Origin: a virus
Taxonomy: Duplodnaviria; Caudoviricetes
Strand: one strand, 5' to 3'
DNA length: 45,384 bases
IMG/VR virus record: IMGVR_UViG_3300022745_000005
Span: 1-45,384 of that record
The notes under the pieces were generated by a model that saw only the letters and a program-made list of their open reading frames with translations, did not search any database and was not told where the DNA came from. Made by a program: the position numbers and the translations under genes. This document shows, piece by piece, positions 12,474 through 30,040 of this stretch (within the stretch, counting starts at the first letter, position 1; each line of letters opens with the position of its first letter).

Positions 12474-13466
12474 CTAGCTCCACTGTGAGGGAGCGTCAAT
12501 GGACCAAAGGCGGGTGATACCGTAGCTTCCAAAGGAGGCCAGGCCCACGGGCCATTCGATGCGCACCATCGTGAACGGACCGTCCGGGCTTTCCGCAATC
12601 GGAACGGTATCCATTCCACCCAACTGGATACCCGTTACGCCCTGCTCGCTGTCAAACGAGGCGAAGTAAACGGAGGTGTGTTCGGCATCTCCGCCGGTTC
12701 CATCGGTTTCGGTGTTGGTGATGATCTCGGTCGACTGGTCTTTCTTGAGGCCGACATCGATGAAGGGTGCGCCGTGATAGGTCAAAATCTGGCGATCAAA
12801 GCTGTCTTTGGTCACATCCAGACCGCCGCCGCCACTGGCATTGATGTAGCGCAGGACGCGGGAGAAGCCCAAGTACATGGCCTCATTCATAAAGATCGCA
12901 TTGACCTTGCCGCCGTTGCAGCGATACCAGGAGGCTTCCCAGTTGTCAATGAAGGTGCGCGCGTTGGCGACGCTGGCGGTCGGGTTGACAGTGGTCGTGG
13001 TCGAGTTGCAGGCAATTAGCTGGCGCGAGGGCATGAGGCTAACGCGCTTTTTCAGCCCTTCAAAACCGTCGACGTCAATGGCCTGGTCGCCGTTGATGAA
13101 GTAGTTGTTGAAGTCCAGGGACATAGCCTTGAGCTTCATGTTCAACTGCTGGGTTTTGGGATCGATGATGGTATTTTGGACTTTGCCAAAAATGCGGTCG
13201 AATTTGATTTCGCCGCCGAAAATATAAACGCTTTCCCACACCTGCTCGACGTCGCCGTCGGTAGTCTCGGTGTAGGTTCCGCCAACCTTGCGGAAGGCTC
13301 CGCCGGTCGGCAAGGTGCGCACGCGAACGGCCAGGGATTGGAGGCTGTTGACGTTCTCCCAGGGCACGACTTCCATGATCTTCGACTCGCGAAGCATGTT
13401 CAGCATGATGCCCTTTTTGAAGTCCTGCACTTCCAACTTGGCGAGCTGTGCTAATGTGTAAGCCAT
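12474..13466 (-). CDS. Major capsid protein (HK97 fold)
   Basis: 330 aa; ESKIMEVVPW, LP...FRKVG, FINGD....FEGL..R and RIEW.VGLA patterns; follows the scaffold. Confidence 0.85.
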   Translation of the reverse strand: MAYTLAQLAKLEVQDFKKGIMLNMLRESKIMEVVPWENVNSLQSLAVRVRTLPTGGAFRKVGGTYTETTDGDVEQVWESVYIFGGEIKFDRIFGKVQNTIIDPKTQQLNMKLKAMSLDFNNYFINGDQAIDVDGFEGLKKRVSLMPSRQLIACNSTTTTVNPTASVANARTFIDNWEASWYRCNGGKVNAIFMNEAMYLGFSRVLRYINASGGGGLDVTKDSFDRQILTYHGAPFIDVGLKKDQSTEIITNTETDGTGGDAEHTSVYFASFDSEQGVTGIQLGGMDTVPIAESPDGPFTMVRIEWPVGLASFGSYGITRLWSIDAPSQWS

Positions 13467-13478
13467 AGTAAGCTCCTG

Positions 13479-14150
13479 TTACCAGCGGCCATTTTTGAAG
13501 GCGCGCTGGAATAATTCGTTGGGATCGTTGATGTCGCGGATAGGGTTCGGGTCAGCAGGCCCACCCCCACCCAAAGGAGTGCTGGCGGTAGCAATGCGCG
13601 CCCGCTTGGCCTCGATAGCCTTGCTCGTAATGCTAATGGCTTCCGTCATGCTCTTGGGCCGAGTTTGGAAGAATTTCGCTTCCGGATCGGCGTCTTCAAT
13701 CAGGATGCCATTCTCTTGCATCAGGTTATAGGCCAGGAGGGAAAGGGGATCGGCAGGAGCGTCATTCGGCGGGGTATTCTGCTGGGCGGCAGAAGGCTGC
13801 GCGAGCGGTTCAGGAGAGGTTTCTACCTTTTGAGCGATCTGGTTGCGCAGCGCATCCACCTGGGCAGGCTGAAGCTCTACGCCAACAGTTTTCAAAAGGT
13901 CGGCCTGTTCTTGGAACCGTTGGTCAATAACGCTTTTCTTCTTGTCTACGTAGGACTGTGCCCGCCTGAACGCTGCGTCCTCGATTTCCTTGACGCGCTT
14001 TTCAAACGTATCCATGTCCACGTATTTCGGGGTCGTTGCTTCCGGCGCACCAGCCTGGACGGGGTTAGCCGTGGGCTGTACAGGGTTGGAAGGTGTGCCC
14101 GCACCCCCATCCTGCGCACCTGAAAACTGCACCTGCTTGCTATCCGGCAT
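13479..14150 (-). CDS. Putative capsid scaffolding protein
   Basis: P/Q/A-rich ends, central coiled coil, directly upstream of the capsid gene; AAGGAG RBS. Confidence 0.65.
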   Translation of the reverse strand: MPDSKQVQFSGAQDGGAGTPSNPVQPTANPVQAGAPEATTPKYVDMDTFEKRVKEIEDAAFRRAQSYVDKKKSVIDQRFQEQADLLKTVGVELQPAQVDALRNQIAQKVETSPEPLAQPSAAQQNTPPNDAPADPLSLLAYNLMQENGILIEDADPEAKFFQTRPKSMTEAISITSKAIEAKRARIATASTPLGGGGPADPNPIRDINDPNELFQRAFKNGRW

Positions 14151-14180: not shown

Positions 14181-14217
14181 CCTGTTTACATTTTAGCACA
14201 AGCGTACAAGTTTACAA
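14181..14217 (-). promoter_or_regulatory. Promoter for the scaffold-capsid operon: TTGTAA-N16-TAAAAT with extended -10
   Basis: Minus strand GTGCTAAAATGTAAACAGG; 17 of 19 bases identical to the site at 31185-31203. Confidence 0.7.
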
Positions 14218-14228
14218 CTACGAATGTG

Positions 14229-17200
14229 CTACTGCGCCCCCATCTGGTCGTAAATGAGCTTCATAAAGGCCTTGAAGTCACCGCCGATTTTACCATTCTT
14301 CTCCCACCAGCTTTGCAGCTCGCTGTAGGCGCCGGGCCGGATGGTTTCGCCGGCGTAGCGAATGGCCTGTAACTGCGCCTGGGTGGCCGCGCTGAATTGG
14401 TTCAGGTCTACGGTGATCGGCCTCTGGTAACTCGTGCCCGCAATCGCCCCGCTCAAGCGGGCATCGCTCAAAACGAAGGAGGCAATATCAGGATTGGCTG
14501 CGGCATAGGTGCGCTGCCAGTCCCAATACTTCTTGAGCATCGATCCTTCTTGCGTCTTGAGGAAGGCCGACCGTTGCGGCGAACCTTTGGCGTAACTATA
14601 ATAGGTTTCCTCCGCGGCGCTCAAGCCTGGGAAGGTATCATCTTTCAGCGCCCGGTAGGCGTACACCTTCTGTTGTGTCGCGGCGGGCAGGCCGTATAGC
14701 TCGCTTTGTTCACTGGTAATCCAGGGGATCGCCTTCGGGTGCTGCGCCAGGAACAAGTTTTTCCAGCTATAGTACTTGTCAATCTGCGGGAACTGCTTGC
14801 GCACCTGGGCCTGTTGCTCTTGGGGCAGGTTCATGTATCCGCTCAAGACGCTGTTGACGTTGGGGAAGTACTTCTTCTGCTCGTCGTAATACTGCTGGAC
14901 AATCGCCGCATCTTCCTTGCTCGCCAGCTTGGGGTTGAGCTTCGGCGCATCCGGGGCCATGTCGGGATTGTTCCCGCCCATCGCCTGCGCCCATTGCGCC
15001 AAGGTCTGCGCGTCAATGCTGTCATAGCTGCGGGTATCCTTGCTCAAGAATGCATCCGTGAATTGCTCGCCCAACTGGTCGCGCATCTGGCGTTTATACA
15101 GGTCCGGCAACTTCATGTAATTGTCCCACACCTCGCTGATCAGGTATTGTTTTAGCCGTTGCTGCGGGTCTTTTTGCAGGCTGTCCATACGGGCCTGATA
15201 CTCGGGATAGGTGTCGAAGAACTTGGTAAAGGCCTGTTTGTCTCCGGCGATCCATTTATCCCGCGCCCTGTTGTACTCCTTCTGTAACTGGCGCTGTTCC
15301 TGCTCGCCTTCAGGGAAGAAGTCTACCCCCAACGGCGCACCCCAATACTGCCATAAGCCCATCTGACTTACGCGCTGCTGCGCCTGGGTGAAGGCGGGGC
15401 CGGTGCGGTCAATCATCGCCCTGCTCGCCTCATCCGCGCTGATGATGCCCTCGGCGGCCATGTTGGACAATACGCGGTCGACGCGGTAATCCTCGAAGCG
15501 ATCAATCGGCGGTTGGCCCGCTGCCCGCCGTAAGGGTTCCTCAATGTTGAAGCCTCGCGGTCCACCGATGCCTGCCGCCGCTGTGTTGGCCTGGATCATC
15601 TTGGCAAAAGGCGTCATTCCTATCTCGTCCTGCCTGCCTGTAACAAACTTATACGCCAGGTTCAGGGGCAGGCTCATCCCACTGACCGCCGATGCAAAGT
15701 CGATCGGGTTCTTGATATTGCCGTCAACGTCCTGCCGCGCCTGGGCTAGCGCCTGGTTCCACACGATCCCGCTGTGCTTGGCAAGCGCATCCTTGTACTC
15801 GGCGTCCGTGATCTCACCGCTCCTCGCCATCTTCGCCAGCAATCCTTCGGCGCTTTTGTTCTCCTGGTTGGTCTGGGAATAGAACTGATCCAGCGGGTTC
15901 GCCAGTTGCAGGAAGGGGAACATCGCCCGCTGTGGATCAAAGAAGATGCCCTCGCCCATCCAGTCGGGTAAGAACGGAAGCGGGATCATGGCTTTCTTCT
16001 TGAGCCGTGTCGGGTAGCCCTTGTCCTGCTGTTGGTTCAGGAAGCCCTGGAGCTTGAAGTAGTTGCTCAGAATGTACGGCTTGTCGATGAAGCGTAAGGC
16101 CCAATTGACCATCGAACGGGTATACCAGAATTCGTAGGGCATTGCCGCCATGAGGCCGGTGTCAAATCCGTAGCGCTGCTCGTAGGGCAGGAGCGCAAAG
16201 TCACGGCGAGCTGTGCCGTAGCGCAGGGTCGCGAGCTTCGCGTCTGCCATTTGTGAATAGACTGTTCCCAGATAGCGCTTGAGTTCGCGCTGTCCATCGC
16301 CGGACAGGTCGCCAAACTGGAATTTCGTCGGGCGGGTGATCGCGTCGGCGTGGGCCTGTTCGGCCTTGTCCAGCGCGGGGAGGATGTGCTTTTGATACGC
16401 CTCGAATGTCGCGTCCTGTGTCGGTGGTCCGCTCATCTGTTCGGCTGTGCCGAGTGGCAGGTTTGCGGCGGCGTTGTTCTCCACCGGCTTCTTGGTCTTG
16501 CGCATCAAGATGTTGGGGTCGTTGGGGTCGAACGTGCCACGGTTGAAGGTGGATTTGATCTGGTCGGGAGAGAAGGCAATGTAGCTATCTTCGGAGTTTG
16601 CTGCCATATGGTCTTGCCACGCCCGATATAATCTCTGCTGTTCTGCGTACCCAGGTAGCTTCTGTTCTTGAATACTTACCGAGTTTTTCGACCCGCCCTT
16701 GCTTCGCATAAACTCATCATTAGCTTTTCTCCATTCTTGAAACTTCGCAGATCCGCCTTCGCTCTCGGCCGTGTTTTTGTAAACAATGCCATCATACCCA
16801 AGATCTTGCAGATACTTTCTTGCTTGTGAGGTAGATTTCATCCTTAAGATATCACGGTATGCTTCCTCTCCAAGAACATCCTTCACACCCCAGGCAATAT
16901 TTTCGACACTCCAACTTCCAAGATCATCAAGGCGGAGCGGATTCTTGATCGAAAGATATGCAGGTAATAACCGAACGCCTTCTGGTTGAGATGAACCGAT
17001 CCCTGTCTTAAATTCGATGCGGTCATTAGCTTGCCCACTCGTACCAAAATGGATTCCGATATCACTTCTTGAAACCTTGAAAGCGTCAAACTGATTACCA
17101 GCCGTCCCATGATACACCACCAGTGGCCCGCCGTTTTCGTCCACTACCTTGCTATCACCGAACCACTCGCGGAAGGCCGGGGTTTCGGGAGATGTGGTGC

Positions 17201-20200
17201 GGAATAACACGCCAGCCCTGCTGATCTTCGCTTCCTTCGCCTTGCCCTCGAAGCCTGGGAGATCCTTGCCCGTCAGGATGTAGTAGACGTTGTTCACCTG
17301 TTCGGGGGTGGTGAACTTGTAGGTTGATCCGCTGGCCTCCACACTTACGGCTAATTCTTTGGCCTTTTCTTCCCATGCCTTGTGTTTCTTTTGATAGGTT
17401 TCCTGTGCCGTAGCACGCTTGCTAAACTCAATCTTTGAATAGTCGGGGGCCTGTGGTTCTTTGCCTAATTGTTTCGCAATGTCTTGGGTTTTGGACAGTA
17501 CCGCTTCCAGGTCGCGGGCAAACGTCGCTTTTTCCGTTGCGGTCATTCCGACCTTGCCAGCTGGCATGGTGTAATCTTTCTCAGCCCCGCCCATCGTCGA
17601 ACCCTTATAAGGTATCACCTCGTTCGCGGGGTAAGGCTGGCCGTTGACCATTGCCTCCATTTGGCCCGCGTCATTCGTGCGGAAACCGTCAACGATACCG
17701 CGCTGGTAATCACCTGCCGCGATCTGATACCAAACTTCATCACCGACTTTGTACAGCATCCCTGCGGGCGCTTCTGCGTTCTGGTAACGCGGGGTGGGGC
17801 CATCTTTTTCTATCGCTCTCTGGACTAGCTTTTCAAACTCATCCTTGCCGCCGATTTTCTTTACCCTGGCGATCAGCCCTGTGATTAGTTCGTCCTGGGT
17901 TGTGCCTGTCCCAGAAATGGCGAGTATACCTGTTCTGCCTTCATCGATATTGAGAGTCTTGCCATCCTTGACGATGAAAAAATCCATACCTTCGAGCCCT
18001 GGGACAGTCACGGGCTTACCCGCCGCCTTTTCAAATCGGAGGAATGAACCGTCAGGGTTCTGCAAGCGGATGTAGTATTCCTTGCGCACTGGCGTGGCGG
18101 TGGCCTGGGGAATTGCGCGGGGTACTGGCGCGGCGGGAGGTGGCTCAACGGGCGCGGGTTGCGTTTCCACCACCGGCGCGCGTACAGGCTCCGGCGCTTT
18201 CACCTGCGCCATGATGCCATCTATCGCGCCTTCATCTGTCGCGGCGCGTAGCATGGTTGACATGATGTTATAGGGAACGTCGCTTGTACCACTCAACACA
18301 CGCTCAGCCCTGGCGTTGTCACCCATTAGCCGATACCACCAAGACGATAACATGCGGGCCTGGGGTTCGTTTCCTCTGACCTGTGTGTATTGCGCGTCAA
18401 ATCCTGGGTGCGCTTTCTCCCATACCGCCATGTCCTTCGCGTAAAGCTGGATGTAATCGCCTTCGGTCTTTGGCGCAACGCTCGCGGGCTTTGCGTCCCA
18501 GGCGGTTGCGGGCGTGGAGGGCTCGGCCTCTACGGGGGCAGTGATAGGCTCGGGCTGTTTAGAGAGAGTTAGATATGAGTTACCTAACTCGTCCTTCTCC
18601 AATCGTGCCAATCCTTTTCTGACAACGGCCTCTTGTACCCTTCGATAAGCATCAGATACACCGCCAAAAGACTCGGTATATATGTCACCATCACGCAAGG
18701 CGGTAAGTAGCATGTTCTGCCCGTTACCCTTGCCGCGTTGTGCTTCTGGAATGGTAAACGTTGCAACTCTCCGTTGTCCGGTCTTATCCTTAGATACCAT
18801 AAGTTCAGAACCAGGAAGGTCAACGATCTTATAAATCGATACCTCGCCGGCTTTGTTATTCCTGGTATAGGAAGATACGCGATTACTCAGCGCTGTCCCA
18901 ACGGGCGGGGGCGTCTCCCCCCCCATCCACCGCTGTATCATCGCCTCAACTTCCGGCGATACCTTTACATCGATCTGACTGCCCTTGATCTTGCGATACA
19001 CCTGCGTCATCCATTGCTTGATGCGCTCGACTACGCCGTACAGCGTGTGTGTCGGCGGCAGTCCTTCCCGTAGTCCCTTCTCCACGGCGGCAGATAGCAG
19101 CTCGTAAGCCTGCGCGTGTGGGGTGGTGTACTGGCCCTTCTTGCCCGCAAGTGGAACCATGTCCTTGTTCCACGTTTCAGGCAGGTCGATGCCATGATCA
19201 TCCTTCAACCACCGGCGCACCGTAGCCGCGTCATCGACAGTCATGAAGGGGGTGATCGCGTGGGTGACTTCATGCGCAACGGTTGCGACGGCTTCCGTCC
19301 CTGTCTGGTCGTAGATGCGCACCAGGCTGTGCAGGTTGTCAGTGAAGGTGGTCACGCCGGTCACGGTGTCGGCGTGCTGGCGGGTTGCCATATCATCATC
19401 AAGACGGGTGAGGATATCAGGCGTTTCCTTGCCCGTAACAATATCCTGCGCCGTGGATAACAGATTGCGCATCCGGCTTTTGCTGTACCCGTCAAATTCA
19501 TAGGAGGCTAATTGTCTCCCGGTTTTGGGGTCGTCAATCTCAAGCCAACCGCTTTGATGCGAGAACCATTCAGAAAGAAAAGTAGCCTGATCGGCTGTGA
19601 TTGGACCTGAAATCGAGATCATACCAGACGCATAATCAATGCGGATTGCCCCAGACTTCTGCATGAAATCGTGCATGTCTATAAATTCGGGGGGCACTTC
19701 CCGATGATCTACATTCCTTTGCCCGCGCAGATAGTCTGGCTCTCCGGGCTTAGGACGATAACCCGTCTTGGTGGGTTCATACCCAGTTGCATAATGCCTA
19801 CCGGAAAGATCGAGCATCCTTCCACCAGGAGTTACATATCCTGCTTCTCGAATGTCATTGGTCGTCCCGTAGAATTTTCGGGCAATCTGCCATGCCTTCT
19901 GCGCCTCATCGCTTGGGGCATAACTGCTAAATCTATTTAGCCCTTCCTCGCCCCCAAACTGCCCGCCAAACTTCCAGCCTATGTTATTCAGCAGCTCATC
20001 TTTCGCGGCAGGATTGTAATTTTCAGCGATTGAATTTAGGAAGTCGCCCATCGCTTGCGCTTGCTCTGGGTATCTCGCCCGCATCTCACGATTGAAGGCT
20101 TCAATGCCTGCGTCAAACTGGTCGGCGTCTTCGAGTTTCGCGCCCTCGCTGTCAAAGTGATCGGCCATCGCCTCAGCCTGGGAATGGATCTCGTCCACGT

Positions 20201-23200
20201 TGGCAGTACCGGGCATCTCGCTCATGCCCGCTTCAAAGGCGGCCTCCTGAATGTCGGCGGGGGTATGTACTGCACCCGTCTTGGTGTCCACCGCCACAAG
20301 GTCGTTGTGGTTCATGTGCTGGACGATTACATCCACGTTCTCGATGTTGACCACTTCCTCAACGGTTGGCACTTCCCGGCGCGTGGCAGCATCTAGCGCG
20401 GCTTGAGTATCCCCTTTTCCACTAGCAACTGGCGCGGGACCAGCTTCCACGTTGGGGGTAGTATCCCCAGGCGTAACCTCGCGGAACTTGGTGCGGAGTC
20501 TGGCGTCGCCTGCAATTCCGGCTGTGGCTGCGGCGTGGGCTGATTGGTTGGCTGCGTCTGCGTCGGCAAAGGTTGCCCCTGCTCCGACATGGAAGTCATA
20601 TCCGGTGAAGTAGCGTTTATTCCCTGATCCATCATCTACCTCCAACACAAGTTGTTGCATCTTGTTCTTGACCGCGTTCATCATCGTTTCTGCGGTCGTC
20701 GTGTCGCCGTTCACGATCACGGCAAATTCATCGCCCCCATATCGGTAGGCGCGGTTCTCGCCTTCGCCGGATACCAGTTGCGCGGCGACTTTGAGCAAGG
20801 CATCCCCGGCAAGGTGCGATACCTCGTCATTGGTCTGCTTCATGCCCCGAATATCGAACAGAGCGAATGAGTAATCCTTGCCCGGTGTACCCTTCAATCC
20901 AGCCATGTCGATCATAAACGTGTTGCGCGTCTTGAGTCCGGTCAGTACGTCTGTCTCGGCGCTGCGCATCCGTTCAATCACGCGGGCTACGGCTTCTTCA
21001 TGCGTCATGCCCTGGTATTCTGGCTTCTGCAATTCTTCGCCAATGATGCGGCGGGCTTCCAAGTTCGCCGGGCTGCGCCGTTCTACCTGTCCGGCTGGCG
21101 GTTCTGTGGCAACGGGCGGGATTGTTTCCGGTTGTACGGTCTGCGCTGGCGGGTTACTCTCAATGTCTCTCACCGCCTGCTGTGCCTGCGTTTCCCAATT
21201 GCCCGCACCCTTAGCAATGGGCCTGCCGCCCTTGCGTTCGCGCAAGATCGTCTCAATCGCGGTCATTCGCATGACCTGATCCTCAGTCTTGGCCTTGACT
21301 TTGTTCAACGCGTTGTACCTGCGGCTCAGATCGGCTGTCTCCAGCTCGTCATACCTTGCGCCGTTGGTGTTACTGGTCACATTCGCCGCTTCGTCGATGG
21401 TCATCGAGGGCTTTGCGGGCGCGGTGACAGGTTCGGGCCGTGCTTTTGGCGCTTCGCCTGCCTGTGGCGCCTGCGGTGGACGCGTAGGCGGTACTTTGGT
21501 CGGCGGTTTGGTATCTGCTCCCCATCCAGGCGCGTTGTTGTGGCTTGCCGTGGCCTGTTCGGTGATGAAACCACGCTGGATGTTGTCGTAATACCACTTG
21601 TTGATCTGTTCGCGCTCAAATCTCTTGATAAGGTGTAGCGGTTGGCCCTGGGTGTAGCCCCGGATCAACTCCATAGATTGCGCCGGAAGCCATGACTTCA
21701 TTTCAGGGGGTAAACTACCGCCCCGGAAGAAGGTTTGGGCGGCGCCTGCCCGTCTGCGCACTTCGCGAACCGCATCCCGCCAGGCCTGGTACTCGCCTTT
21801 GGGTCGGCCTGTGGTGCGTTCGTACAATCTCGCGCCTAACTCATCGATAATGCCCTGTGCGCGGTCGGCCTCGATGATCGCCTTAGCATAGCGGTCGATG
21901 TTTCGGCGGTTGAGCGCGTCCCACTCGGCTGAACGCGCTTCCTGGGGCATGTCTTTGGGTAATGCGTTCCAGTTCTCGAACTCGTCCCGCACCTGGTCAT
22001 GGAATTCTTTCCATACCCGATGAATACCGGGCTTGTCCACATCAATTCCATTGCCCAGATAGGCGAGCATCGCCGCACTCTCGGCGTCATCCGCGCCTAA
22101 TGCCTGGTAGATGCCCAGCCATTGCGCCGCTTCCTGGTCAAAGAAGGCATTGTATACGCTGTTCTCCTGCGCTTTGAGGTTGGCCCATTTGATTGCCCGC
22201 TCCTGTTCGGTGTACTTGCCGGTTGCTAAGTCCTCAGCAACGGCGGCTGTCCTGTCAAAGTGTCCGTTGGCGGTATCGAAGGCCATCCCGTCTAGCTGAT
22301 CCACGAGGTCTTGTACGCCCTTGACGCCCTCGACGCTGGCTTTTGTCACCACCTTCTCAACTGTTTCACGGGCTTTGCGTATCGTATCCTTGCGGATGGT
22401 GTCGGCTATGTTCTTCTTAGCCTTGCCATACAGCGCGTGAACGTCCTGGGGGGTCTTTGCGGTCTTGAGATCCTTGTCAATCTGCTCCACCAGTCCGGGG
22501 AAGTGGTCGAGCATTTGAATATCGTTCTTGTCCAGCACATCCCGCACGCTGATCTTGTCCACACCATTGAACAAGGCGGCTTCAATCTCTGTCCGGCTGT
22601 GTCCGTTGGCTATCAACTGTTCGATCTTACCCACTAAGTCAGGGTTGATACCGTCCAGGTATAAGGCGAGCTGCGGATGGTTGTCGCGGATGCTATCAAA
22701 GCCGTCGCCTGCCTTCCATAGTCCATCCCAAAAAGGCCTCATTGCGTTGTGATAAGCGACTTCGGAAGCGTTCTTCTCCATCCATTGCGACAACCGCGCG
22801 AAGGCTGTTACCTTGCGGGAGAACTTAGAAAGGTTCTGGTTTGTTTTCGATAACCAATCCTTCCCCTGTCTGGCGTCGCGTATCTCCTGACCTAAACTGT
22901 AACCCTTGCGGCCTTCCTGCACCAGTTTCGCAGCTTCAATCTCGCCGCCTACTTCGCCCTGGTCCGCCGCGCTTGCACCCTTGCGGAACATGCTATCAGG
23001 GAAGCCCATGCGCGTGAACCAGCCGGCCCGTTGTCCTTGCGTGTTGATCGCAAGCAAACCGTCATACAGCAGGTGCATCTCATTCGTCAATCCGTTGGTC
23101 ATCGCAAAGGTGGGGGTATTGAGTAACACCATGCTTTGCGCCGACTTGACGAAATTGGATACCTTCTCGACCCAGCCCATCGGTTTGACGTTGAACCAGT

Positions 23201-25331
23201 CTACCGCCCACTTTTCCAGGCTTTGCGCCAATGCCTCGCCCACGTGCAGCTTGAGAAGTTCCGGCGTGAACGGTGCGCCATCCTTGCCGTAGAACAACTT
23301 GGCGGCTTCACGCAGTGGGTTATTCCCACCCTCGGCGAAGAAGTCCAGTTCTGCACCGGGTAAAATACCCGCGTCCACGTTCTCGCGGATGGTCTGCATC
23401 ACGCCACGATAAGCCCGGTCCAGTTCCGGCGCGCCCTTGGGTTCGGCAAACATGCGGATAACATCGCTCATGGTCACGGGCTTTTCCGGTGTACTCAATG
23501 CCTGCGCCATGCGCTGTATGATCTTGCGCTGCAACACCGTCTGATCGTAGGCGTCCACCACCTTGAGCGGTTCGGAGGCGGCGTCCTTCATCGCTACGGA
23601 AAGGATCGCGCCCTCACTGCTGTCAATGAACTTGGGGTAAGGCGAGCCGTCCATCTGTGCCCGCGCTTCCCCTGGTTTGGTATCGCGCAGACTCGTAAGC
23701 GCCTGCCGGATTGCGCCGGGGGCTGTCTCATCGTTGGGCAGAATCTTGAATAGCTCATCCACCCCGCTAGCCATCTTGTACGCGGCGCTGGTTGCCCTGC
23801 TTTGCGGTGTCATGCCGAACACGCGGTCTAACACACTGGCCTTATTGACCGGACTAAACTCTTTGGGTAGTCCAGCCTCGTCAATGCCCGCGACCATGCG
23901 CAAAATGGGGTGTAACCTGGACGCTTCTTCCACCGGCATTTCACGCACAAGGCGGGCGGTATTCATCAGCCCTTCATGCCCGGATGCGCTCATCGCCATG
24001 GCTTCTTCCAACGGCTTCCAGTTGAGAGCCTTACCCAACTTCCCGAGCGCCGCGACTTCTCCGCCAGGAACAAGATACATCAGGTCGAAGATGCTTTGTC
24101 CTACGAGCTGCTGCACATCGTAACGGATACCCACCTTTGCCCGTATCTCGCTCTCGATTTGCGCAAGGCTTTCCCCCGCGTCAATCCTGCGCCGCGCATC
24201 GGCAAGTAGAAAGGCTGTTGGGCTGGCTTCTTCGGGCGGGGCAATTACGTTATGGGTTGGCCCTACCTTGTTCGCTTCCCATGCGTCGATCTCGTTAGGC
24301 AAAAAGGCGACGCCATAGGTCAGCGCCCCTGCTTTGTAGGCATCGTCAATATGTTGGATGACCTCACCCACCGGACCATACTTCTCGGGATCGCGGATGC
24401 TGTTGAACAATTGGTTCAGCACGCCCATCGATTGCTCGGGGATCATTGCCGACGCACTCAGAATAGGCATGGCCTTTTGCGCCAGGTCGGCAGCCTGCGG
24501 GTTGACAAAGGTTCCATCCGGGTTCTGCTTGAAGGCTTCGCCAAAGATCGAGGCGAACAGCACGCCTATACCAGCACCCATCAAACCGCCCTTTGCCCCT
24601 GCCGCCGCGCCTTCTGCCGCGCCGCTGATAGCGCCCAAGACGCCGCCCTGAATTCCCGACTGCGCGGTCATCTGTCCACCGGGGAGGGATTGGATCGCCT
24701 TTTGCCACCACTCCAACTTATCCCATTCCGGGGCAGGCACGCCCGCTACCATATCAGCCTTCGGTGCGTTCACATCGCTAGGCGGTTGGTAGGTTTGGGC
24801 CTGCGTCTGCTGCGCACGTGCCACCTGGAAATCGAGGTAGTCGGCGGGAACCAGTACATTCCCGCCCTGTTTTGCCATCTCCGCAAGCGCATCCCGCCCG
24901 TAGGCAGATAACGCCTGATCCTCTGGAATTGGATACAGTACGTTATCCGGGCCGGCCTTGGGTGCGCCTTGCGCCGCTATGCTCTGGCTGGTCTGGGTTG
25001 GGTCTTCACCAAATATCAATTGGCTGGTGAACTGACCCATCGGAACAACGGGGTTATCCTTCTGGACATACTCCTTGGGGAGATAACTCAGGTGTTCGGC
25101 GAGGTTAGGGTCAGGGTAATTCCACTGCCGGGTATTGACGTCGGGACGGTTGAGATAGTTGATCGCCGCGCCGCTTTGAGGGCTCATGCCTGCGGGTAAG
25201 TGGCTCCAAGTGCGGAGTAGGGTATCGTTTGTTTGCGCTCCCCATCCAGTCGGACGCACAGCCCAACTCTTGCGGGCCATGTCGTCATACCATGCCTTGC
25301 TATAGGGTTCGATGGCAGGTGCGTTGCTCAA
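14229..25331 (-). CDS. Giant polyvalent, probably ejected, virion protein (3,700 aa) with GGDEF, zincin HExxH, GNAT and ART-like domains
   Basis: TTG start with GGAGG RBS; lies between portal and scaffold; motifs RYGGDEF, AHEVTH, QRGKGNG and F..WFGDSKVVDENG.PLVVYHGT. Confidence 0.85.
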   Translation of the reverse strand: MSNAPAIEPYSKAWYDDMARKSWAVRPTGWGAQTNDTLLRTWSHLPAGMSPQSGAAINYLNRPDVNTRQWNYPDPNLAEHLSYLPKEYVQKDNPVVPMGQFTSQLIFGEDPTQTSQSIAAQGAPKAGPDNVLYPIPEDQALSAYGRDALAEMAKQGGNVLVPADYLDFQVARAQQTQAQTYQPPSDVNAPKADMVAGVPAPEWDKLEWWQKAIQSLPGGQMTAQSGIQGGVLGAISGAAEGAAAGAKGGLMGAGIGVLFASIFGEAFKQNPDGTFVNPQAADLAQKAMPILSASAMIPEQSMGVLNQLFNSIRDPEKYGPVGEVIQHIDDAYKAGALTYGVAFLPNEIDAWEANKVGPTHNVIAPPEEASPTAFLLADARRRIDAGESLAQIESEIRAKVGIRYDVQQLVGQSIFDLMYLVPGGEVAALGKLGKALNWKPLEEAMAMSASGHEGLMNTARLVREMPVEEASRLHPILRMVAGIDEAGLPKEFSPVNKASVLDRVFGMTPQSRATSAAYKMASGVDELFKILPNDETAPGAIRQALTSLRDTKPGEARAQMDGSPYPKFIDSSEGAILSVAMKDAASEPLKVVDAYDQTVLQRKIIQRMAQALSTPEKPVTMSDVIRMFAEPKGAPELDRAYRGVMQTIRENVDAGILPGAELDFFAEGGNNPLREAAKLFYGKDGAPFTPELLKLHVGEALAQSLEKWAVDWFNVKPMGWVEKVSNFVKSAQSMVLLNTPTFAMTNGLTNEMHLLYDGLLAINTQGQRAGWFTRMGFPDSMFRKGASAADQGEVGGEIEAAKLVQEGRKGYSLGQEIRDARQGKDWLSKTNQNLSKFSRKVTAFARLSQWMEKNASEVAYHNAMRPFWDGLWKAGDGFDSIRDNHPQLALYLDGINPDLVGKIEQLIANGHSRTEIEAALFNGVDKISVRDVLDKNDIQMLDHFPGLVEQIDKDLKTAKTPQDVHALYGKAKKNIADTIRKDTIRKARETVEKVVTKASVEGVKGVQDLVDQLDGMAFDTANGHFDRTAAVAEDLATGKYTEQERAIKWANLKAQENSVYNAFFDQEAAQWLGIYQALGADDAESAAMLAYLGNGIDVDKPGIHRVWKEFHDQVRDEFENWNALPKDMPQEARSAEWDALNRRNIDRYAKAIIEADRAQGIIDELGARLYERTTGRPKGEYQAWRDAVREVRRRAGAAQTFFRGGSLPPEMKSWLPAQSMELIRGYTQGQPLHLIKRFEREQINKWYYDNIQRGFITEQATASHNNAPGWGADTKPPTKVPPTRPPQAPQAGEAPKARPEPVTAPAKPSMTIDEAANVTSNTNGARYDELETADLSRRYNALNKVKAKTEDQVMRMTAIETILRERKGGRPIAKGAGNWETQAQQAVRDIESNPPAQTVQPETIPPVATEPPAGQVERRSPANLEARRIIGEELQKPEYQGMTHEEAVARVIERMRSAETDVLTGLKTRNTFMIDMAGLKGTPGKDYSFALFDIRGMKQTNDEVSHLAGDALLKVAAQLVSGEGENRAYRYGGDEFAVIVNGDTTTAETMMNAVKNKMQQLVLEVDDGSGNKRYFTGYDFHVGAGATFADADAANQSAHAAATAGIAGDARLRTKFREVTPGDTTPNVEAGPAPVASGKGDTQAALDAATRREVPTVEEVVNIENVDVIVQHMNHNDLVAVDTKTGAVHTPADIQEAAFEAGMSEMPGTANVDEIHSQAEAMADHFDSEGAKLEDADQFDAGIEAFNREMRARYPEQAQAMGDFLNSIAENYNPAAKDELLNNIGWKFGGQFGGEEGLNRFSSYAPSDEAQKAWQIARKFYGTTNDIREAGYVTPGGRMLDLSGRHYATGYEPTKTGYRPKPGEPDYLRGQRNVDHREVPPEFIDMHDFMQKSGAIRIDYASGMISISGPITADQATFLSEWFSHQSGWLEIDDPKTGRQLASYEFDGYSKSRMRNLLSTAQDIVTGKETPDILTRLDDDMATRQHADTVTGVTTFTDNLHSLVRIYDQTGTEAVATVAHEVTHAITPFMTVDDAATVRRWLKDDHGIDLPETWNKDMVPLAGKKGQYTTPHAQAYELLSAAVEKGLREGLPPTHTLYGVVERIKQWMTQVYRKIKGSQIDVKVSPEVEAMIQRWMGGETPPPVGTALSNRVSSYTRNNKAGEVSIYKIVDLPGSELMVSKDKTGQRRVATFTIPEAQRGKGNGQNMLLTALRDGDIYTESFGGVSDAYRRVQEAVVRKGLARLEKDELGNSYLTLSKQPEPITAPVEAEPSTPATAWDAKPASVAPKTEGDYIQLYAKDMAVWEKAHPGFDAQYTQVRGNEPQARMLSSWWYRLMGDNARAERVLSGTSDVPYNIMSTMLRAATDEGAIDGIMAQVKAPEPVRAPVVETQPAPVEPPPAAPVPRAIPQATATPVRKEYYIRLQNPDGSFLRFEKAAGKPVTVPGLEGMDFFIVKDGKTLNIDEGRTGILAISGTGTTQDELITGLIARVKKIGGKDEFEKLVQRAIEKDGPTPRYQNAEAPAGMLYKVGDEVWYQIAAGDYQRGIVDGFRTNDAGQMEAMVNGQPYPANEVIPYKGSTMGGAEKDYTMPAGKVGMTATEKATFARDLEAVLSKTQDIAKQLGKEPQAPDYSKIEFSKRATAQETYQKKHKAWEEKAKELAVSVEASGSTYKFTTPEQVNNVYYILTGKDLPGFEGKAKEAKISRAGVLFRTTSPETPAFREWFGDSKVVDENGGPLVVYHGTAGNQFDAFKVSRSDIGIHFGTSGQANDRIEFKTGIGSSQPEGVRLLPAYLSIKNPLRLDDLGSWSVENIAWGVKDVLGEEAYRDILRMKSTSQARKYLQDLGYDGIVYKNTAESEGGSAKFQEWRKANDEFMRSKGGSKNSVSIQEQKLPGYAEQQRLYRAWQDHMAANSEDSYIAFSPDQIKSTFNRGTFDPNDPNILMRKTKKPVENNAAANLPLGTAEQMSGPPTQDATFEAYQKHILPALDKAEQAHADAITRPTKFQFGDLSGDGQRELKRYLGTVYSQMADAKLATLRYGTARRDFALLPYEQRYGFDTGLMAAMPYEFWYTRSMVNWALRFIDKPYILSNYFKLQGFLNQQQDKGYPTRLKKKAMIPLPFLPDWMGEGIFFDPQRAMFPFLQLANPLDQFYSQTNQENKSAEGLLAKMARSGEITDAEYKDALAKHSGIVWNQALAQARQDVDGNIKNPIDFASAVSGMSLPLNLAYKFVTGRQDEIGMTPFAKMIQANTAAAGIGGPRGFNIEEPLRRAAGQPPIDRFEDYRVDRVLSNMAAEGIISADEASRAMIDRTGPAFTQAQQRVSQMGLWQYWGAPLGVDFFPEGEQEQRQLQKEYNRARDKWIAGDKQAFTKFFDTYPEYQARMDSLQKDPQQRLKQYLISEVWDNYMKLPDLYKRQMRDQLGEQFTDAFLSKDTRSYDSIDAQTLAQWAQAMGGNNPDMAPDAPKLNPKLASKEDAAIVQQYYDEQKKYFPNVNSVLSGYMNLPQEQQAQVRKQFPQIDKYYSWKNLFLAQHPKAIPWITSEQSELYGLPAATQQKVYAYRALKDDTFPGLSAAEETYYSYAKGSPQRSAFLKTQEGSMLKKYWDWQRTYAAANPDIASFVLSDARLSGAIAGTSYQRPITVDLNQFSAATQAQLQAIRYAGETIRPGAYSELQSWWEKNGKIGGDFKAFMKLIYDQMGAQ
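16500..17200 (-). other. ADP-ribosyltransferase-like domain (ART-PolyVal type) within the giant protein
   Basis: PAFREWFGDSKVVDENGGPLVVYHGT, GIHFG, AYLSIKNPL, GYDGIVY, YIAFSPDQIKS..N.GTFD. Confidence 0.75.
18580..18850 (-). other. GNAT acetyltransferase-like domain within the giant protein
   Basis: VATFTIPEAQRGKGNGQNML fits the acetyl-CoA motif A (Q/RxxGxG). Confidence 0.65.
18920..19380 (-). other. Zincin metallopeptidase-like domain within the giant protein
   Basis: TVAHEVTHA (HExxH at 19260-19274), downstream YELLS..VE helix and RIKQWM.QVY. Confidence 0.65.
20530..20960 (-). other. GGDEF diguanylate cyclase domain within the giant protein
   Basis: TDVLTGL, FDIRGMKQTND, SHLAGDALL and YRYGGDEFAVI (GGDEF codons 20724-20738), in canonical order and spacing. 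Confidence 0.92.
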
Positions 25332-25334
25332 GGA

Positions 25335-26084
25335 TTAGCCTCCGTAGCCTCTCCAATTGGTCAGGTTGATAAGCCATTGCGGGCGTGCGCCGCCACCACC
25401 GCCGCCGCCACCCCAGCCCCAACCGTAGCCGTAGCCATCACCGGCGGGGGCGGGGGGTGTATAGGGCTTGGTTGGATCGCCTCCAATCGCGCCGTAAGGC
25501 ATGGAGTAATACGGCGCGGGGAAGTCGCGCAAGTTGCTCGCTGTTTCATAACGAGGGTTGACCTGGTTGATCTTCTGGGGAATGACGCGCCCCTGTCCAT
25601 CCAGCTTGACCTGTGGGGGGAGCCAGGTCGAGGGCGTGCCGGGGGTGGTTACGCTTGGGGTTTGCGCGGATGTGCGGTACTGCGTAGGCGGCATGTAGGT
25701 ATAGGGCTGGATGGTTTGCGCGGCAATGTTAGCCGCATTGGCAAATACCTGCTGCCCTGGGTTGTATTGCGGTCCGGTACTCTGCGGCCCGCTCATCAGG
25801 CGGTTGTAGTCGATGATGTTCGGGTTCTGAGGTGGAAGATAGGCAGGCTGGAGGCCGGGAAACATCCGCGCGCGCCACTGACTGTAACTGGTGATCTGCG
25901 GTTGGATGGGAATAACCTTGACATTGTTTCGGTCAGCCTGGGGTGTCTGATCGTAGGCGTTGACACTATTCACCGAAGGCGTGAACGTTACCACGGGCTT
26001 TGTAGGCTGTGGCTTGGCTGGTGCAGGGTTGGTCGGCATCAAGGTGACAGGGTCAATCGTGGGTGAACTAAACTTTACGGCCAT
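25335..26084 (-). CDS. P/Q/Y/G-rich low-complexity protein; putative internal/ejection protein
   Basis: GGAGG RBS before MAVKFSSP; lies between portal and giant protein. Confidence 0.6.
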   Translation of the reverse strand: MAVKFSSPTIDPVTLMPTNPAPAKPQPTKPVVTFTPSVNSVNAYDQTPQADRNNVKVIPIQPQITSYSQWRARMFPGLQPAYLPPQNPNIIDYNRLMSGPQSTGPQYNPGQQVFANAANIAAQTIQPYTYMPPTQYRTSAQTPSVTTPGTPSTWLPPQVKLDGQGRVIPQKINQVNPRYETASNLRDFPAPYYSMPYGAIGGDPTKPYTPPAPAGDGYGYGWGWGGGGGGGGARPQWLINLTNWRGYGG

Positions 26085-26274: not shown

Positions 26275-26275
26275 G

Positions 26276-28027
26276 CTAATACCCTCCTTGCCCGTTACCG
26301 CCAGGCATCGGCCCGCCAGGTTCTTGCGGTTGCGCCATAGGTAGGCCACCTTGCGATTGTTGTAGCTGCGCCATTATATCGGCGGGGTTGGGCTGTCCTT
26401 GCGGTTGTTCTTGCGGCATACCAGGAGGCAGGCCCGGCTGCCCTTGCGGTAACTGTCCAGGCATCCCAGGCTGTTGACCCTGCGCTTGCAAGCTCATCGC
26501 CTGCGCCTGTAGTTGTGCTTCCTGTTGGGCGTTCTGTTGGAAGATGCGCTCTAACTCGCGCTCCACGTAGATGCGGTAGACCATCTCTTTGGGCTGTTCG
26601 ATCTCCAACAGTTCTTCCATTGCCCATTCCTTGCTTGCCAGTCCTGCCCCGACGAGTTGAACCGCAACTACCGCATTCTGCCGCTCGTCCGTGGGCTGGT
26701 CCAGCTTGAGATTGCAATCCAGGTCGATGACTTCCGGTATTTCTTTGGGGTCCATTTCGATAACGCCCTTGGGACCGTAAACGCTTGCCCCGCTCCCACC
26801 CTTGCGCAGCAGGTCGAACGCGGAAAGCATCGCCATTGCTATGCTGTATTCCGTTGCCGCCTTGTAGGGTGCGAGGGGGAGGCGTCCTTGCTGGCTCATC
26901 AAGGCGCTCTCACTGAATGAGCGACCACCCTGTAGCGGTTGGCCTAACGCCTGTGAATACATCGTGCTTTGTTCGGCAAGCTGCGCAAACATCTGCCAGG
27001 TCTGAACCAGGCTGCTATCAATCGCGTTCTTGGCTAACGGCTGGTACTGCTCGTCTTTTTCGATAGTCACAACCGTTGGGACAGAAGAATAATCCACTCG
27101 CGGCGCCGGCTTGTCGGGTTGGTTGGCCTGATAGACGAACGTCGGCGCTGCTCCCAGGGCAAAGGCAAGCGAGGTTTGCAGGGTCAGGTTGATATTCGAG
27201 GCTGCCCACACGCCTGATTTGTGGATGGTGTACAGCATCGGCTGGCGGCTGTTAGGGTCGTTGGTCGAGTACAGATCCCCACCCTCGACCACGTGACTGA
27301 CAATCGGAATAAAGCCCAGCGGGTTGCTTGTCTCTTTGTTGAGCGGCTTGCTTGCGCCTTCCACCCAGCAGAAATGATTCTCGTAATCCCAATAATCCCA
27401 GACGTTGACACGATCCGTGACCTTAGTCCTCCCGCCCGTATCCGCATCAATCCCATAGCGTCCGTGAATGTCGCCAATGGTGAGTGAACGCCTGCTGCTG
27501 TGTGAGGATAACCCCGCCAGGTCGAATAGGGGGAAGCAGTCCGCCGGACGCATGACCTCGAACAGAATGGGCGCTTGCTTTGCAATCCGATCGAACCGCG
27601 CCACCTGCCCGCCTCTGGCTGCGTCCCGAAGGTATTGCGTCACGTTGATCGCTATGTCAACCTCGGAATACATCAGGGCGCTGGTAGCCGCCTGGACATG
27701 GAGCCGTTTACCCGTAACACGGTCGCTCGCGCGCGCCAGGGTGGAGGCGAAACGCTCGATCTGTTCTGCCTTGGTGTTGGCGTCCTGGTTGTTCTTGTCC
27801 CGTCCCACGTGAAAGCCTGGATAGGTGGGGGTCATCAACTGGATTGCCCCACGCAACTTGTTACGCGGCGAGGGGTCAAGCGTCTTCTTGACATGGCTAC
27901 CCTTGGGAACAGCGCTGCTCTCCAAGTTCATGATGTTTTCAAGCTCGACGTAGAGCGCATTTCGCACGCCGTAAATGGTTTGCAGGTTGGCCGCTAACGT
28001 CTGTGCTTCCGCTAGTTGAATTGGCAT
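26276..28027 (-). CDS. Portal protein
   Basis: 583 aa directly after TerL; NPLGFIPIV motif; Q/P/G-rich tail typical of podovirus portals. Confidence 0.8.
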   Translation of the reverse strand: MPIQLAEAQTLAANLQTIYGVRNALYVELENIMNLESSAVPKGSHVKKTLDPSPRNKLRGAIQLMTPTYPGFHVGRDKNNQDANTKAEQIERFASTLARASDRVTGKRLHVQAATSALMYSEVDIAINVTQYLRDAARGGQVARFDRIAKQAPILFEVMRPADCFPLFDLAGLSSHSSRRSLTIGDIHGRYGIDADTGGRTKVTDRVNVWDYWDYENHFCWVEGASKPLNKETSNPLGFIPIVSHVVEGGDLYSTNDPNSRQPMLYTIHKSGVWAASNINLTLQTSLAFALGAAPTFVYQANQPDKPAPRVDYSSVPTVVTIEKDEQYQPLAKNAIDSSLVQTWQMFAQLAEQSTMYSQALGQPLQGGRSFSESALMSQQGRLPLAPYKAATEYSIAMAMLSAFDLLRKGGSGASVYGPKGVIEMDPKEIPEVIDLDCNLKLDQPTDERQNAVVAVQLVGAGLASKEWAMEELLEIEQPKEMVYRIYVERELERIFQQNAQQEAQLQAQAMSLQAQGQQPGMPGQLPQGQPGLPPGMPQEQPQGQPNPADIMAQLQQSQGGLPMAQPQEPGGPMPGGNGQGGY

Positions 28028-28029
28028 GT

Positions 28030-29493
28030 TTAGGCTCCGAAGTTTATTGTAGTCCAGGGGTTCGGCGCGCTGTCTCGCCTTACGTACTCCTGAATAGATT
28101 CAATCGCGTTATAAGCCACACTGCTACCGTCAATCAGGTCATCATGTGACAGGTCAGGGAAACCATGCAACTCAGCAAGGTATACGTCATTCCATGACGC
28201 GGCGAGTAACTTTACTTTTCCCTTGCTGGATGAGGTTGAATAGGCGTTGGCTCTTACAACTTTATCCCCTGCGCTGGGGATGCCTTCGCAATCCAGGCCA
28301 GGGTACTTCTTGATAAGTTCTCGCTTGAGGCGTTCACTTTCGCGGATGGATGCGCTTCCAGGCTCGATCTCCCAGCGCACCATATACCTTGTAGCTGACG
28401 CGCGCGCCATCATCATATCACGGGCGATAACCGCAAACATCCAGCCTTCAACTTCTCCCGCTGGCATCCGCTCTTTGATCGCATCCACGACGATATACGT
28501 ATCCTTCACCTTACGTATCTTCACGCCGGTATTGAAGTCTGGGTCGTCATTCTTCTGGCTTTTCATCGTCGCCGCCAGGTCAAAGCCTCTACACTCAACA
28601 CCCCCAGCCGGTGCATGTGCGACCAGATCGAACCACTGGCGATTGAATACCTTACCGGCTTCAGCCCGCGCCTTCCAATTGCCGCCCCGCTTGGGATCTC
28701 CAAGGAAACGCGCACGTTCAATTGGGCCTTGCGCCTGCAGGTTGGCGAGATAACCAGGGTCAGTGATGAGCAGGATCAGGTTATCGTATACCGTTGCCGG
28801 GATGAATGTAACACTCTTTGGCATCAGTTCAGGGAATTGCTCTTTGAGTTCTTCCTTACTCTCTCCCCAAATTACCTCATCATTCCAACGCACAAACCAG
28901 CGCAACACACCGGCACGCTCAAGGATTGCATAGCCGTCGCTGTCGATCCACCATGACAGGAAGCCTTTCCCCCACACACCATCTTTGTCAGTAACTAGCC
29001 AACTGTCAGGGTCAGGGTTGCAGGTCCCCCGCACACGTGGAGGCACGCCACAAGTCGAACGGTTGCGGATGAGTAAATAAAAAAATTGCTTCTCGCTAAA
29101 ATGCTCTAACTGGTCAAAGCACAGGTCACAAATCTGCGCACCGTCAAACTTAGATAGTTCGCTCTCATACTGGCAATGACCAAACTCCACCCGCGCACCA
29201 CTGGGAAAGCGCCATTGTAACGAACCCTTCACGCCCTCGGCTTTGGCATGAGGATAGATATTCTCGCTCACATCCCACATGCCGCCCTGATTGGTTACCT
29301 CAGGGTAGGTGCGCCGCATGATGACTGCGCCAAACTCGGGAACATCCACATCATGCAACGGATCAAGCAAAAGTCCGTACGTTTTCCCACCCCCAGCCGC
29401 ACCGCCATAAATACAAATATCAGCCGACGAGGACAGGAATTCCTCCTGCCTGCCAGGTTGCGGCTTGATAACCTTAGCCGGGGTTATTCTCAT
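28030..29493 (-). CDS. terL: Terminase large subunit
   Basis: PQPG.Q, Walker A YGGAAGGGKT, RGTCNP, R.FDLAAT and FP...HDDLID nuclease motifs. Confidence 0.95.
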   Translation of the reverse strand: MRITPAKVIKPQPGRQEEFLSSSADICIYGGAAGGGKTYGLLLDPLHDVDVPEFGAVIMRRTYPEVTNQGGMWDVSENIYPHAKAEGVKGSLQWRFPSGARVEFGHCQYESELSKFDGAQICDLCFDQLEHFSEKQFFYLLIRNRSTCGVPPRVRGTCNPDPDSWLVTDKDGVWGKGFLSWWIDSDGYAILERAGVLRWFVRWNDEVIWGESKEELKEQFPELMPKSVTFIPATVYDNLILLITDPGYLANLQAQGPIERARFLGDPKRGGNWKARAEAGKVFNRQWFDLVAHAPAGGVECRGFDLAATMKSQKNDDPDFNTGVKIRKVKDTYIVVDAIKERMPAGEVEGWMFAVIARDMMMARASATRYMVRWEIEPGSASIRESERLKRELIKKYPGLDCEGIPSAGDKVVRANAYSTSSSKGKVKLLAASWNDVYLAELHGFPDLSHDDLIDGSSVAYNAIESIQEYVRRDSAPNPWTTINFGA

Positions 29494-30040
29494 TGCGTGG
29501 CCGGCCGTTGTCGGGTAGGTAAATGATAACGTTAGATAATGGCTGTCCGTCTTTGGTCGATAGTTCAGTTCGGGCCGTGACCATTTGACGAATATCCATC
29601 ACCTTCTGAATGGCCTCTAGCTTGCTGTATAGCTCGACCTCTTGTATGGTTGTCTCGCTTTCTGCGCCATCTTTGGAGGTAGATAACTTAGTGACCTGTT
29701 TTACCTTGCGAATGAGATGAGTCAGTCCCTTACGCTTCGCACCCGCAAGATCGAGATTGAAACTAACCTCTGAAATGTCCAAAAGCTCGCCCATGTCGCC
29801 GCGTGCTATATCGGAAAGAATTAGAACAATTTCGTCGTTTTTCAACGCCTTTTCGTCAACAAGGCGTTTTATCTCAGATTTGATGTTAGGGTTTGTTAGA
29901 AATTCGGATGAAGTGGACCTCGATGACCGTTCTGAATACCCAGCCCGAATACAGGCCTGCGAACCGTTGAAGTCCTTGACATACTCTCGGCAAAAGGCTT
30001 GCTGTTTGGGCGTCAGGCCAGTAACAGGATCGGCAACCAC
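29474..30040 (-). CDS. terS: Terminase small subunit
   Basis: LTPKQQAFCREYVKDFNGSQACIRAGYS is the Terminase_2 pattern; GTG start. Confidence 0.92.
   Translation of the reverse strand: MVADPVTGLTPKQQAFCREYVKDFNGSQACIRAGYSERSSRSTSSEFLTNPNIKSEIKRLVDEKALKNDEIVLILSDIARGDMGELLDISEVSFNLDLAGAKRKGLTHLIRKVKQVTKLSTSKDGAESETTIQEVELYSKLEAIQKVMDIRQMVTARTELSTKDGQPLSNVIIYLPDNGRPRNENNPG

Follow-up and report, generated by a model that had tools for sequence, protein, structure and literature searches.

A GGDEF domain without an inhibitory site as a recurrent cassette of a giant, likely virion-delivered phage polyvalent protein

The DNA studied here comprises positions 1 to 45,384 of the virus record IMGVR_UViG_3300022745_000005 (Duplodnaviria; Caudoviricetes), and we refer to this whole stretch of 45,384 nucleotides as the window. 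It is the complete ~45-kb genome of an uncultured freshwater phage, with a 127-base terminal repeat at its ends and a virus record of the direct terminal repeat class. The minus strand carries the terminase, portal, capsid and tail genes, and the plus strand the replication genes. Between the portal and capsid genes stands one giant open reading frame (ORF), in the middle of which an earlier note on this DNA had seen a diguanylate cyclase domain lacking its inhibitory site (I-site), inside a probable virion-delivered protein. We find that this segment has the fold and most of the signature residues of a GGDEF domain, that its I-site is absent, and that the domain recurs in a quarter of the orthologous giant proteins. 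The features of the locus are collected in Table 1.

Table 1. Features at the giant-protein locus, in nucleotide (nt) positions of the window
Feature	Position	Strand	Remark
Portal, large and small terminase genes	26276..30040	-	Upstream of the giant gene
267-residue Pro/Gln-rich ORF, ending in a glycine run	25335-26138	-	Between portal and giant gene
Giant polyvalent protein, 3,700 amino acids (aa), ~400 kDa	14229..25331	-	Single open frame
Conserved N-terminal block, aa ~300-1200	21732..24434	-	Common to up to 112 of 119 orthologues
Amphipathic helix, aa 1444-1460	20952..21002	-	Leads into DxLT; possible coiled-coil dimeriser
GGDEF domain, aa 1461-1608	20508..20951	-	DxLT wide turn to end of helix alpha4
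RxxD inhibitory-site position, reading EGEN, aa 1523-1526	20754..20765	-	Loop two residues shorter than usual
Replaced gamma-phosphate binders, His1599 (nt 20535-20537) and Thr1603	20523..20537	-	Compare DgcR K289/R293, PleD K442/R446
Zincin-like peptidase cassette, HEVTH at aa 2020-2024	18882..19379	-	HExxH motif; cassette in 75 of 120 family members
ADP-ribosyltransferase (ART) cassette, ART-PolyVal, aa 2731-2930	16542..17141	-	PF18760, E 2e-15, above cut-off; 34 of 120 members
Conserved helical C-terminal block, aa 2960-3690, family-defining	14262..16454	-	131 homologues
223-residue ORF and major capsid protein gene	12474..14150	-	Directly downstream of the giant gene

The segment is confirmed as a real GGDEF domain, far beyond chance. 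Pfam PF00990 matches aa 1458-1587 (E 5.2e-12; 46.3 bits against a cut-off of 23.8), bearing out the family assignment of the earlier note, and NCBIfam TIGR00254 scores 52.6 bits against a cut-off of 37.4. An AlphaFold2 model of aa 1425-1625 (mean predicted local distance difference test score, pLDDT, 87.5) shows the full GGDEF topology, with a 16-residue helix ahead of the DxLT turn (model residues 20-35) and a long last helix. The top ranks in searches with Foldseek and VIA-align were diguanylate cyclases (DgcR, WspR, SiaD, DgcB). DgcR scored Z 18.6 (root mean square deviation 5.6 over 171 residues) and GcbC Z 17.7 (2.2 over 139), with adenylyl cyclases and polymerases ranking lower, below Z 10.

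Residue roles were taken from descriptions of DgcR (PMC8041772) and PleD (PMC12943098 and PMC7288161). The motifs listed in the earlier note (DxLTGL, FDIRGMKQTND, H..GD and RYGGDEF) are all present in the frame at 14229-25331: DVLTGL starts at aa 1461 (Asp at nt 20949-20951), FDIRGMKQTND holds D1493, K1498, N1501 and D1502 and is followed by H1506 and GD1510, and the GGDEF motif itself occupies aa 1532-1536 (nt 20724-20738). The metal site (D1493 and GGDEF 1532-1536; PleD D327 and E370), the guanine binders (N1501 and D1510; PleD N335 and D344) and the transition-state Lys (K1498; PleD K332, DgcR K179) are kept. So are four of the five members of the cross-dimer set formed in DgcR by R147, D183, H187, D282 and Y286, namely R1469, D1502, H1506 and D1592, the Tyr being Q1596. 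Canonical residues thus stand at 12 of the 15 signature positions checked (D1461, R1469, D1493, K1498, N1501, D1502, H1506, D1510, G1533, D1534, E1535 and D1592). The same note had correctly read the usual C-terminal Lys as His, and had missed a second loss among the gamma-phosphate binders, Thr1603 (model residue 179), which aligns to DgcR 293 and PleD 446 in the structure alignment. Because the gamma-phosphate Lys and Arg are missing, we do not file the domain as a canonical class I diguanylate cyclase, though it likely works like one.

With the cyclases that have coiled-coil linkers (DgcR, PleD, WspR, DgcB and SiaD) the domain shares the fold, the DxLT turn, the metal, guanine and GGDEF residues and the equivalents of K179 and R147. 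It differs from canonical cyclases in that it lacks a sensor domain, has a shorter I-site loop, reads DIRGMK where they have DxDxFK, carries His and Thr at the places of the gamma-phosphate Lys and Arg, and has an extended last helix where they have their last strand.

The I-site position reads EGEN, as had been claimed, and beyond that claim the loop, measured between the guanine Asp and the Arg that precedes the motif, is shortened to 20 residues, compared with 22 in 190 of 230 measurable controls. Two control sets were used, 232 cellular domains (query-like and with an exact GG[DE]EF) and 31 Chloroflexota domains (top Pfam scores), both of which favour canonical domains and so inflate conservation. 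RxxD is present in only 96 of the 232 cellular controls, and in 19 of 26 exact-motif Chloroflexota domains. The absence of the I-site is therefore not remarkable, and we rejected it as a mark of novelty, many cellular cyclases being without RxxD. A degenerate GGDEF receptor for cyclic di-GMP (c-di-GMP) of the PelD or PopA type was also rejected, since it needs an intact RxxD.

Relatives of the domain were not reached by direct means. Among 4,558 candidates of similar length, a direct search with the domain returned the window's own protein alone; a pattern gave 49 matches in viral contigs and a single C-terminal query 22 in genome contigs, none of them a close relative, and no near-identical relative was found beyond the cluster to which the window belongs. 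It was the C-terminal block, together with an alignment, that led to the family; the best 120 of its 131 homologues form the basis of all counts out of 120. A cluster-representative search found P0013 and P0053, two giant proteins in which both the N- and C-terminal blocks recur and a GGDEF domain stands at the same place (P0002, second match in that search, was discarded as a repeat artefact, Muc B2). A family profile then placed 30 GGDEF-like domains in 29 of 120 orthologues, P0013, P0053 and 26 others showing the same arrangement as the window, and wherever both conserved blocks could be placed the domain lies between them, in the same variable zone. Eight more domains came from 149 fetched loci, several being copies of proteins already in the set. 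In P0170 (aa 1567-1958) two GGDEF-like domains stand in tandem, the second with GGDMF, and could form an internal pair.

This middle zone is a cassette rack, holding peptidase-like HExxH cassettes in 75, ARTs in 34 and GGDEF domains in 29 of 120 members; others carry DdrB-ParB and helicase domains. Mapping the presence of GGDEF onto a C-terminal-block tree takes 18 changes, compared with a mean of 26.1 and a least value of 20 in shuffles, and the more alike two scaffolds are, the more alike are their GGDEF domains (Mantel rho 0.36, p 0.0005; 24 of 29 carriers, near-copies dropped). As judged from these sequence comparisons, the pattern fits an old cassette that is often lost or exchanged.

Removal of 8 near-copies from 38 domains left 30 non-redundant family domains with a mean identity of 25%. 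Across them the half-site is kept: 28 have the metal Asp, 29 the guanine Asn and 25 the guanine Asp (4 more have Asn there), and the motif letters G, D, E and F are found in 28, 29, 29 and 27. Such retention at this mean identity suggests that the family is under selection for GTP binding. Asp and Thr of the DxLT turn each occur in 24 of 30, and the heptad-like helix ahead is also kept: counted from the DxLT Asp, position -3 is hydrophobic in 83% of the domains and position -10 in 70%. The I-site loop is 18-21 residues long in 29 of 30; in five domains an R..D, spaced differently, lies no more than 20 residues from the motif. The window copy, whose best identity to any other family domain is 36%, is one of only three in 30 with an intact half-site and both the K179 and R147 equivalents. 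Other copies vary: P0154 retains the K179 and R147 equivalents as well as the C-terminal Lys, P0053 has His at K179, and P0236 has Gly there together with the hairpin insertion. Where an Arg stands two residues after the metal Asp, the C-terminal Lys is found in 2 of 14 domains, as against 11 of 16 without this Arg (Fisher p 0.004, uncorrected for kinship, most domains with the Arg falling in one subclade of the GGDEF tree). The exchange suggests compensation, a hint to be read with that kinship in mind.

The giant protein is a phage polyvalent protein, with multiple enzymatic domains of unrelated chemistries (GGDEF, ART-PolyVal and the HExxH cassette) in one polypeptide encoded among late virion genes, and with cassettes swapped among orthologues. 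Only GGDEF and ART-PolyVal lie above Pfam cut-offs; the peptidase cassette has its HEVTH motif and a match to Peptidase_MA_2 below cut-off (E 0.024). The GC content at third codon positions (GC3) is 0.66 for the whole gene, 0.65 for GGDEF, 0.44 for the ART stretch (aa 2721-2880) and 0.48 for aa 1761-1920 (19572-20051), and the low values suggest that the latter two cassettes were swapped in more recently. A 150-residue cassette at 19452-19904 on the minus strand (~aa 1810-1960) is common to 11 of 120 orthologues and has no match in Pfam, PHROGs, NCBIfam or the Atlas; a second one without an assigned family (aa 1700-1805) occurs in 18 of 120. Within 18462-18824 (minus strand), a stretch without a Pfam match, QRGKGNG near aa 2198 resembles what we take to be the acetyl-CoA loop of GNAT acetyltransferases, and among the family only the window's protein has it.

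Searches of Pfam, PHROGs, NCBIfam and PDB with the sequences of the scaffold blocks gave nothing usable, nor did comparison by fold. The N-terminal block has no Pfam family; a weak ESM Atlas lead points to viral clusters, in one of which 20% of the members have LPD38, with recognition below threshold, so that it is a lead only. The C-terminal block was modelled with low confidence (pLDDT 69, predicted template modelling score 0.43), and this model found no PDB fold match at E 0.001. Virion delivery therefore rests on context: the conserved blocks match no known ejection protein, and gene position and partner domains fit delivery, in agreement with the earlier note. In 56 of 63 related loci holding both genes, the capsid gene lies no more than 2.5 kb downstream of the giant gene on the same strand. 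From this context the giant protein is likely an internal, ejection-type virion protein injected with the DNA. Of its two neighbours, the 223-residue ORF is, by position, a probable scaffold, and the Pro/Gln-rich ORF, which has no homologue in 149 related loci at E 1e-5, may be a pilot-type ejection protein.

The assembly of the region is consistent in the runs compared. Two freshwater runs, which may both be sources of the window DNA and so are not independent samples, each gave a single contig of 45,287 bases with even depth (90.7 and 21.6) and zero differing letters between them and the window over 14000-26500. A third run contains 20106-20765 in a single piece with zero differences. No integrase match was found among 47 ORFs scanned in the window, no Rfam match anywhere in it, and no RNA runs containing it are listed. 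Among other genes, a 357-residue late gene at 10902-11975 (minus strand) has no Pfam or PHROGs match, occurs in 17 of 149 related loci and follows the capsid gene in the examples printed. Plus-strand genes at 35237-35860, 41579-42376 and 44575-45255 encode two DNA methyltransferases and a phosphoadenosine phosphosulfate (PAPS)-reductase-like protein, which suggest DNA modification.

As to the host, 7 of 11 related loci in genome collections lie in Chloroflexota assemblies (the best 53% identical), including all three on contigs above 100 kb, which likely hold prophages because they are longer than the phage. The other four come from contigs of 10-46 kb in bins of Pirellulales, Methanothrix, Paludibacter and Thermoleophilia. 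On one 326-kb Chloroflexia contig (L062, 140-12254) the giant gene is in pieces, with ORFs of 2,751, 693 and 301 aa among the several fragments, as would be seen in a prophage undergoing decay. Five Chloroflexota genomes with related giant-protein genes have 4 to 43 GGDEF matches of their own each, and hence use c-di-GMP signalling. In the same five, a search for CBASS (cyclic oligonucleotide-based antiphage signalling system) cyclases gave one match, below cut-off, and one for bacterial STING gave none, as did its controls; neither result bears on immunity. Chloroflexota are thus probably the hosts of the window phage.

Much of this architecture is known. Iyer et al. 2017 (PMC5512222) list GGDEF domains among phage polyvalent proteins, including an Acetonema longum prophage protein (WP_004096050.1) that joins GGDEF, zincin peptidase and ART. 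They argue that polyvalent proteins in general are packaged and ejected, possibly being cut into units by the peptidase, and propose for such domains a part in disturbing nucleotide responses of the host or in combating rival elements. The window's protein shares with those the giant late-gene setting, the combination of GGDEF, zincin-like motif and ART, and the proposed role. It differs in scaffold blocks without a Pfam family, in having no SWI2/SNF2 or methyltransferase domain in this copy, and in its probable host, Chloroflexota and not a firmicute as in their example; its family may already be in the supplements of that paper. Stand-alone GGDEF proteins are annotated in YuA-like Pseudomonas and Vojvodinavirus Bordetella phages (PMC10333796, PMC8471281). 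These, like others of Clostridium and Bacillus phages, are phage-encoded GGDEFs too, but small separate proteins, 29-39% identical over about half the domain and without fusion to a virion-type scaffold. In PB1-like phages, YIP peptides target the host cyclase YfiN, with superinfection exclusion suggested as a result (PMC8085984), and are a precedent for a phage altering host c-di-GMP signalling and raising c-di-GMP, albeit by peptides on a host cyclase and not by an enzyme that the phage brings. A bench test of a polyvalent GGDEF was not found in the literature searched, most subscription journals lying outside its coverage, in keeping with the earlier note, which knew of no characterised example.

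The reading that we favour, with about even confidence, is that the GGDEF domain without an I-site is a swappable cassette in a likely packaged and injected polyvalent protein, that it is predicted to bind GTP and Mg, and that a pair of copies likely makes c-di-GMP, probably at a slow pace. The giant protein would be packaged in the virion and ejected with the DNA, and the HExxH peptidase may release cassettes or cut the protein into units. Two copies could pair via the helix before DxLT or via the conserved scaffold blocks. Asn1501, Asp1510 and Arg1469 would confer guanine specificity, and Arg1495, two residues after the metal Asp, may stand in for the lost C-terminal Lys. The product would be c-di-GMP, probably formed at a low rate; it is the predicted product, if any, because neither Hypr feature (Ser at xxGD, a lost cross-dimer Arg) is seen here. 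The weakest step is purpose: a feedback-free rise in c-di-GMP at entry might push a c-di-GMP-using host, probably of the Chloroflexota, to a sessile state with altered surface structures, alongside the action of the ART and the peptidase. Alternatively, as a late gene product, the protein could act before packaging.

By analogy with the N4 virion polymerase and the T7 core proteins, a protein of ~400 kDa would be present in only a few copies per 45-kb virion, and a global pulse of c-di-GMP would therefore be small except with a fast or locally acting enzyme. The "multi-copy" ejected protein and its "unrestrained pulse", as the earlier note pictured them, are doubtful on this account, with both gamma-phosphate binders replaced and dimerisation putative. 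That note had also left the product as c-di-GMP or 3'3'-cGAMP (the cyclic dinucleotide of GMP and AMP); the second is unlikely, Asp1510 and Arg1469 being of the c-di-GMP type, and the first stands as a prediction. Interference with nucleotide-based immunity, offered there as one possible effect, had already been proposed (PMC5512222).

Several observations weigh against the favoured reading. Both gamma-phosphate binders and the interface Tyr are replaced in this copy (H1599, T1603 and Q1596), the C-terminal Lys being present in 219 of the 232 cellular controls and 30 of the 31 Chloroflexota domains. Canonical motifs are no guarantee of activity, as in GdpS (PMC10333796). The domain is not detectable in 91 of 120 orthologues and so is dispensable, and none of the 11 genome-collection loci has a GGDEF domain in the stretch fetched. 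Sequence searches, and fold searches with a low-confidence model, matched the conserved blocks to no known or solved ejection protein, and the host is inferred from relatives only. Lastly, the cross-dimer and phosphate-acting residues are relaxed across the family. Equivalents of R147, K179, D183, H187, D282, Y286 and K289 occur in 8, 12, 16, 14, 13, 0 and 13 of the 30 family domains, compared with 209, 214, 198, 216, 205, 171 and 219 of the 232 cellular controls and 27, 26, 27, 29, 29, 29 and 30 of the 31 Chloroflexota domains. A two-residue insertion in the catalytic hairpin is seen in 14 of 30 (for example L030:9413-9979, L091:4289-4939 and L092:9365-9937). This insertion (for example RLHDSGDEF) resembles RIFHPSGDEF of a protein from an archaeal metagenome-assembled genome (PMC13725321).

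The family's chemistry may accordingly be unlike that of textbook cyclases, and a kept half-site beside relaxed cross-dimer and phosphate residues and a longer hairpin is what one would see if GTP and metal binding were retained and the chemistry changed. The domain would then make linear pppGpG, transfer GMP to another acceptor, or act in the cytoplasm as a GTP sensor that switches neighbouring cassettes, and GTP-sensing GGDEF domains are known (PMC2952852, PMC10333796). A quick tree points the same way: the 30 family domains group with P0143 (LPD22), P0049 (both from other large proteins) and one long-branch host row (Shimodaira-Hasegawa approximate likelihood ratio test, SH-aLRT, 91), apart from 59 of 61 cellular rows, though this support falls below the tool's mark of 95. 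We nonetheless think changed chemistry rather unlikely, since R1469, K1498, D1502, H1506 and D1592 are intact in the window copy, and the DxLT turn and the amphipathic helix before it, which serve dimer catalysis, persist in the family.

Loss of the Lys, Arg and Tyr at the C-terminal end, a best family identity of 36% and patchy presence (29 carriers in 120, with 18 changes on the scaffold tree) could also mark a decaying or catalytically dead passenger in this copy. We hold this to be improbable, as the copy is among the most canonical of its family, its GC3 is that of the gene around it and its divergence tracks the scaffold, which fits long residence under selection. Poorer still are the prospects of 3'3'-cGAMP or mixed cyclic dinucleotides serving as decoys against CBASS- or STING-type immunity. 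The idea has been put forward in general terms for polyvalent GGDEFs (PMC5512222), and the cross-dimer Arg is lost in 22 of 30 relatives, as it usually is in the Hypr enzymes that make cGAMP. These have Ser at the xxGD Asp (PMC13725321, PMC6456294), a residue found there in none of the 30 family domains; the window copy shares with the Hypr enzyme GacA (PMC6456294) the Asp form of the GGDEF motif, but has Asp1510 in place of that Ser and Arg1469, not Tyr, at the cross-dimer site. Moreover, an immune signal made by the phage could itself trigger defence. An assembly chimera or chance motif, for which only the want of a near-identical relative outside the window's cluster speaks, can be set aside as refuted by the orthologues with the domain in the same zone, by the uninterrupted 3,700-codon frame and by the single contigs at flat depth.

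Beyond the slow, injected cyclase that we favour, a bolder proposal, which we regard as doubtful, is that virion-borne GGDEFs form a lineage of their own. In these the feedback loop would have been deleted, the half-site kept and the dimer and phosphate surface rebuilt (an Arg beside the metal Asp for the C-terminal Lys, a longer hairpin), and the product would be other than plain c-di-GMP (pppGpG, a guanylylated host target or a decoy nucleotide), injected as counter-defence by phages of Chloroflexota.

As a discovery this is modest, the architecture having been catalogued by computer in 2017; new here are the family itself, the indication that its hosts are probably Chloroflexota, and the combination of a conserved half-site and a rebuilt dimer surface. 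The window copy, being among the most canonical, is a good first reagent, and the natural variants of the family, which do or do not have the K179 and R147 equivalents, the hairpin insertion and the C-terminal Lys, could reveal what residues the chemistry of a cyclase requires. If active, the domain would be a phage-made second messenger source delivered at the moment of infection, and would indicate c-di-GMP as a lever in phage infection of Chloroflexota.

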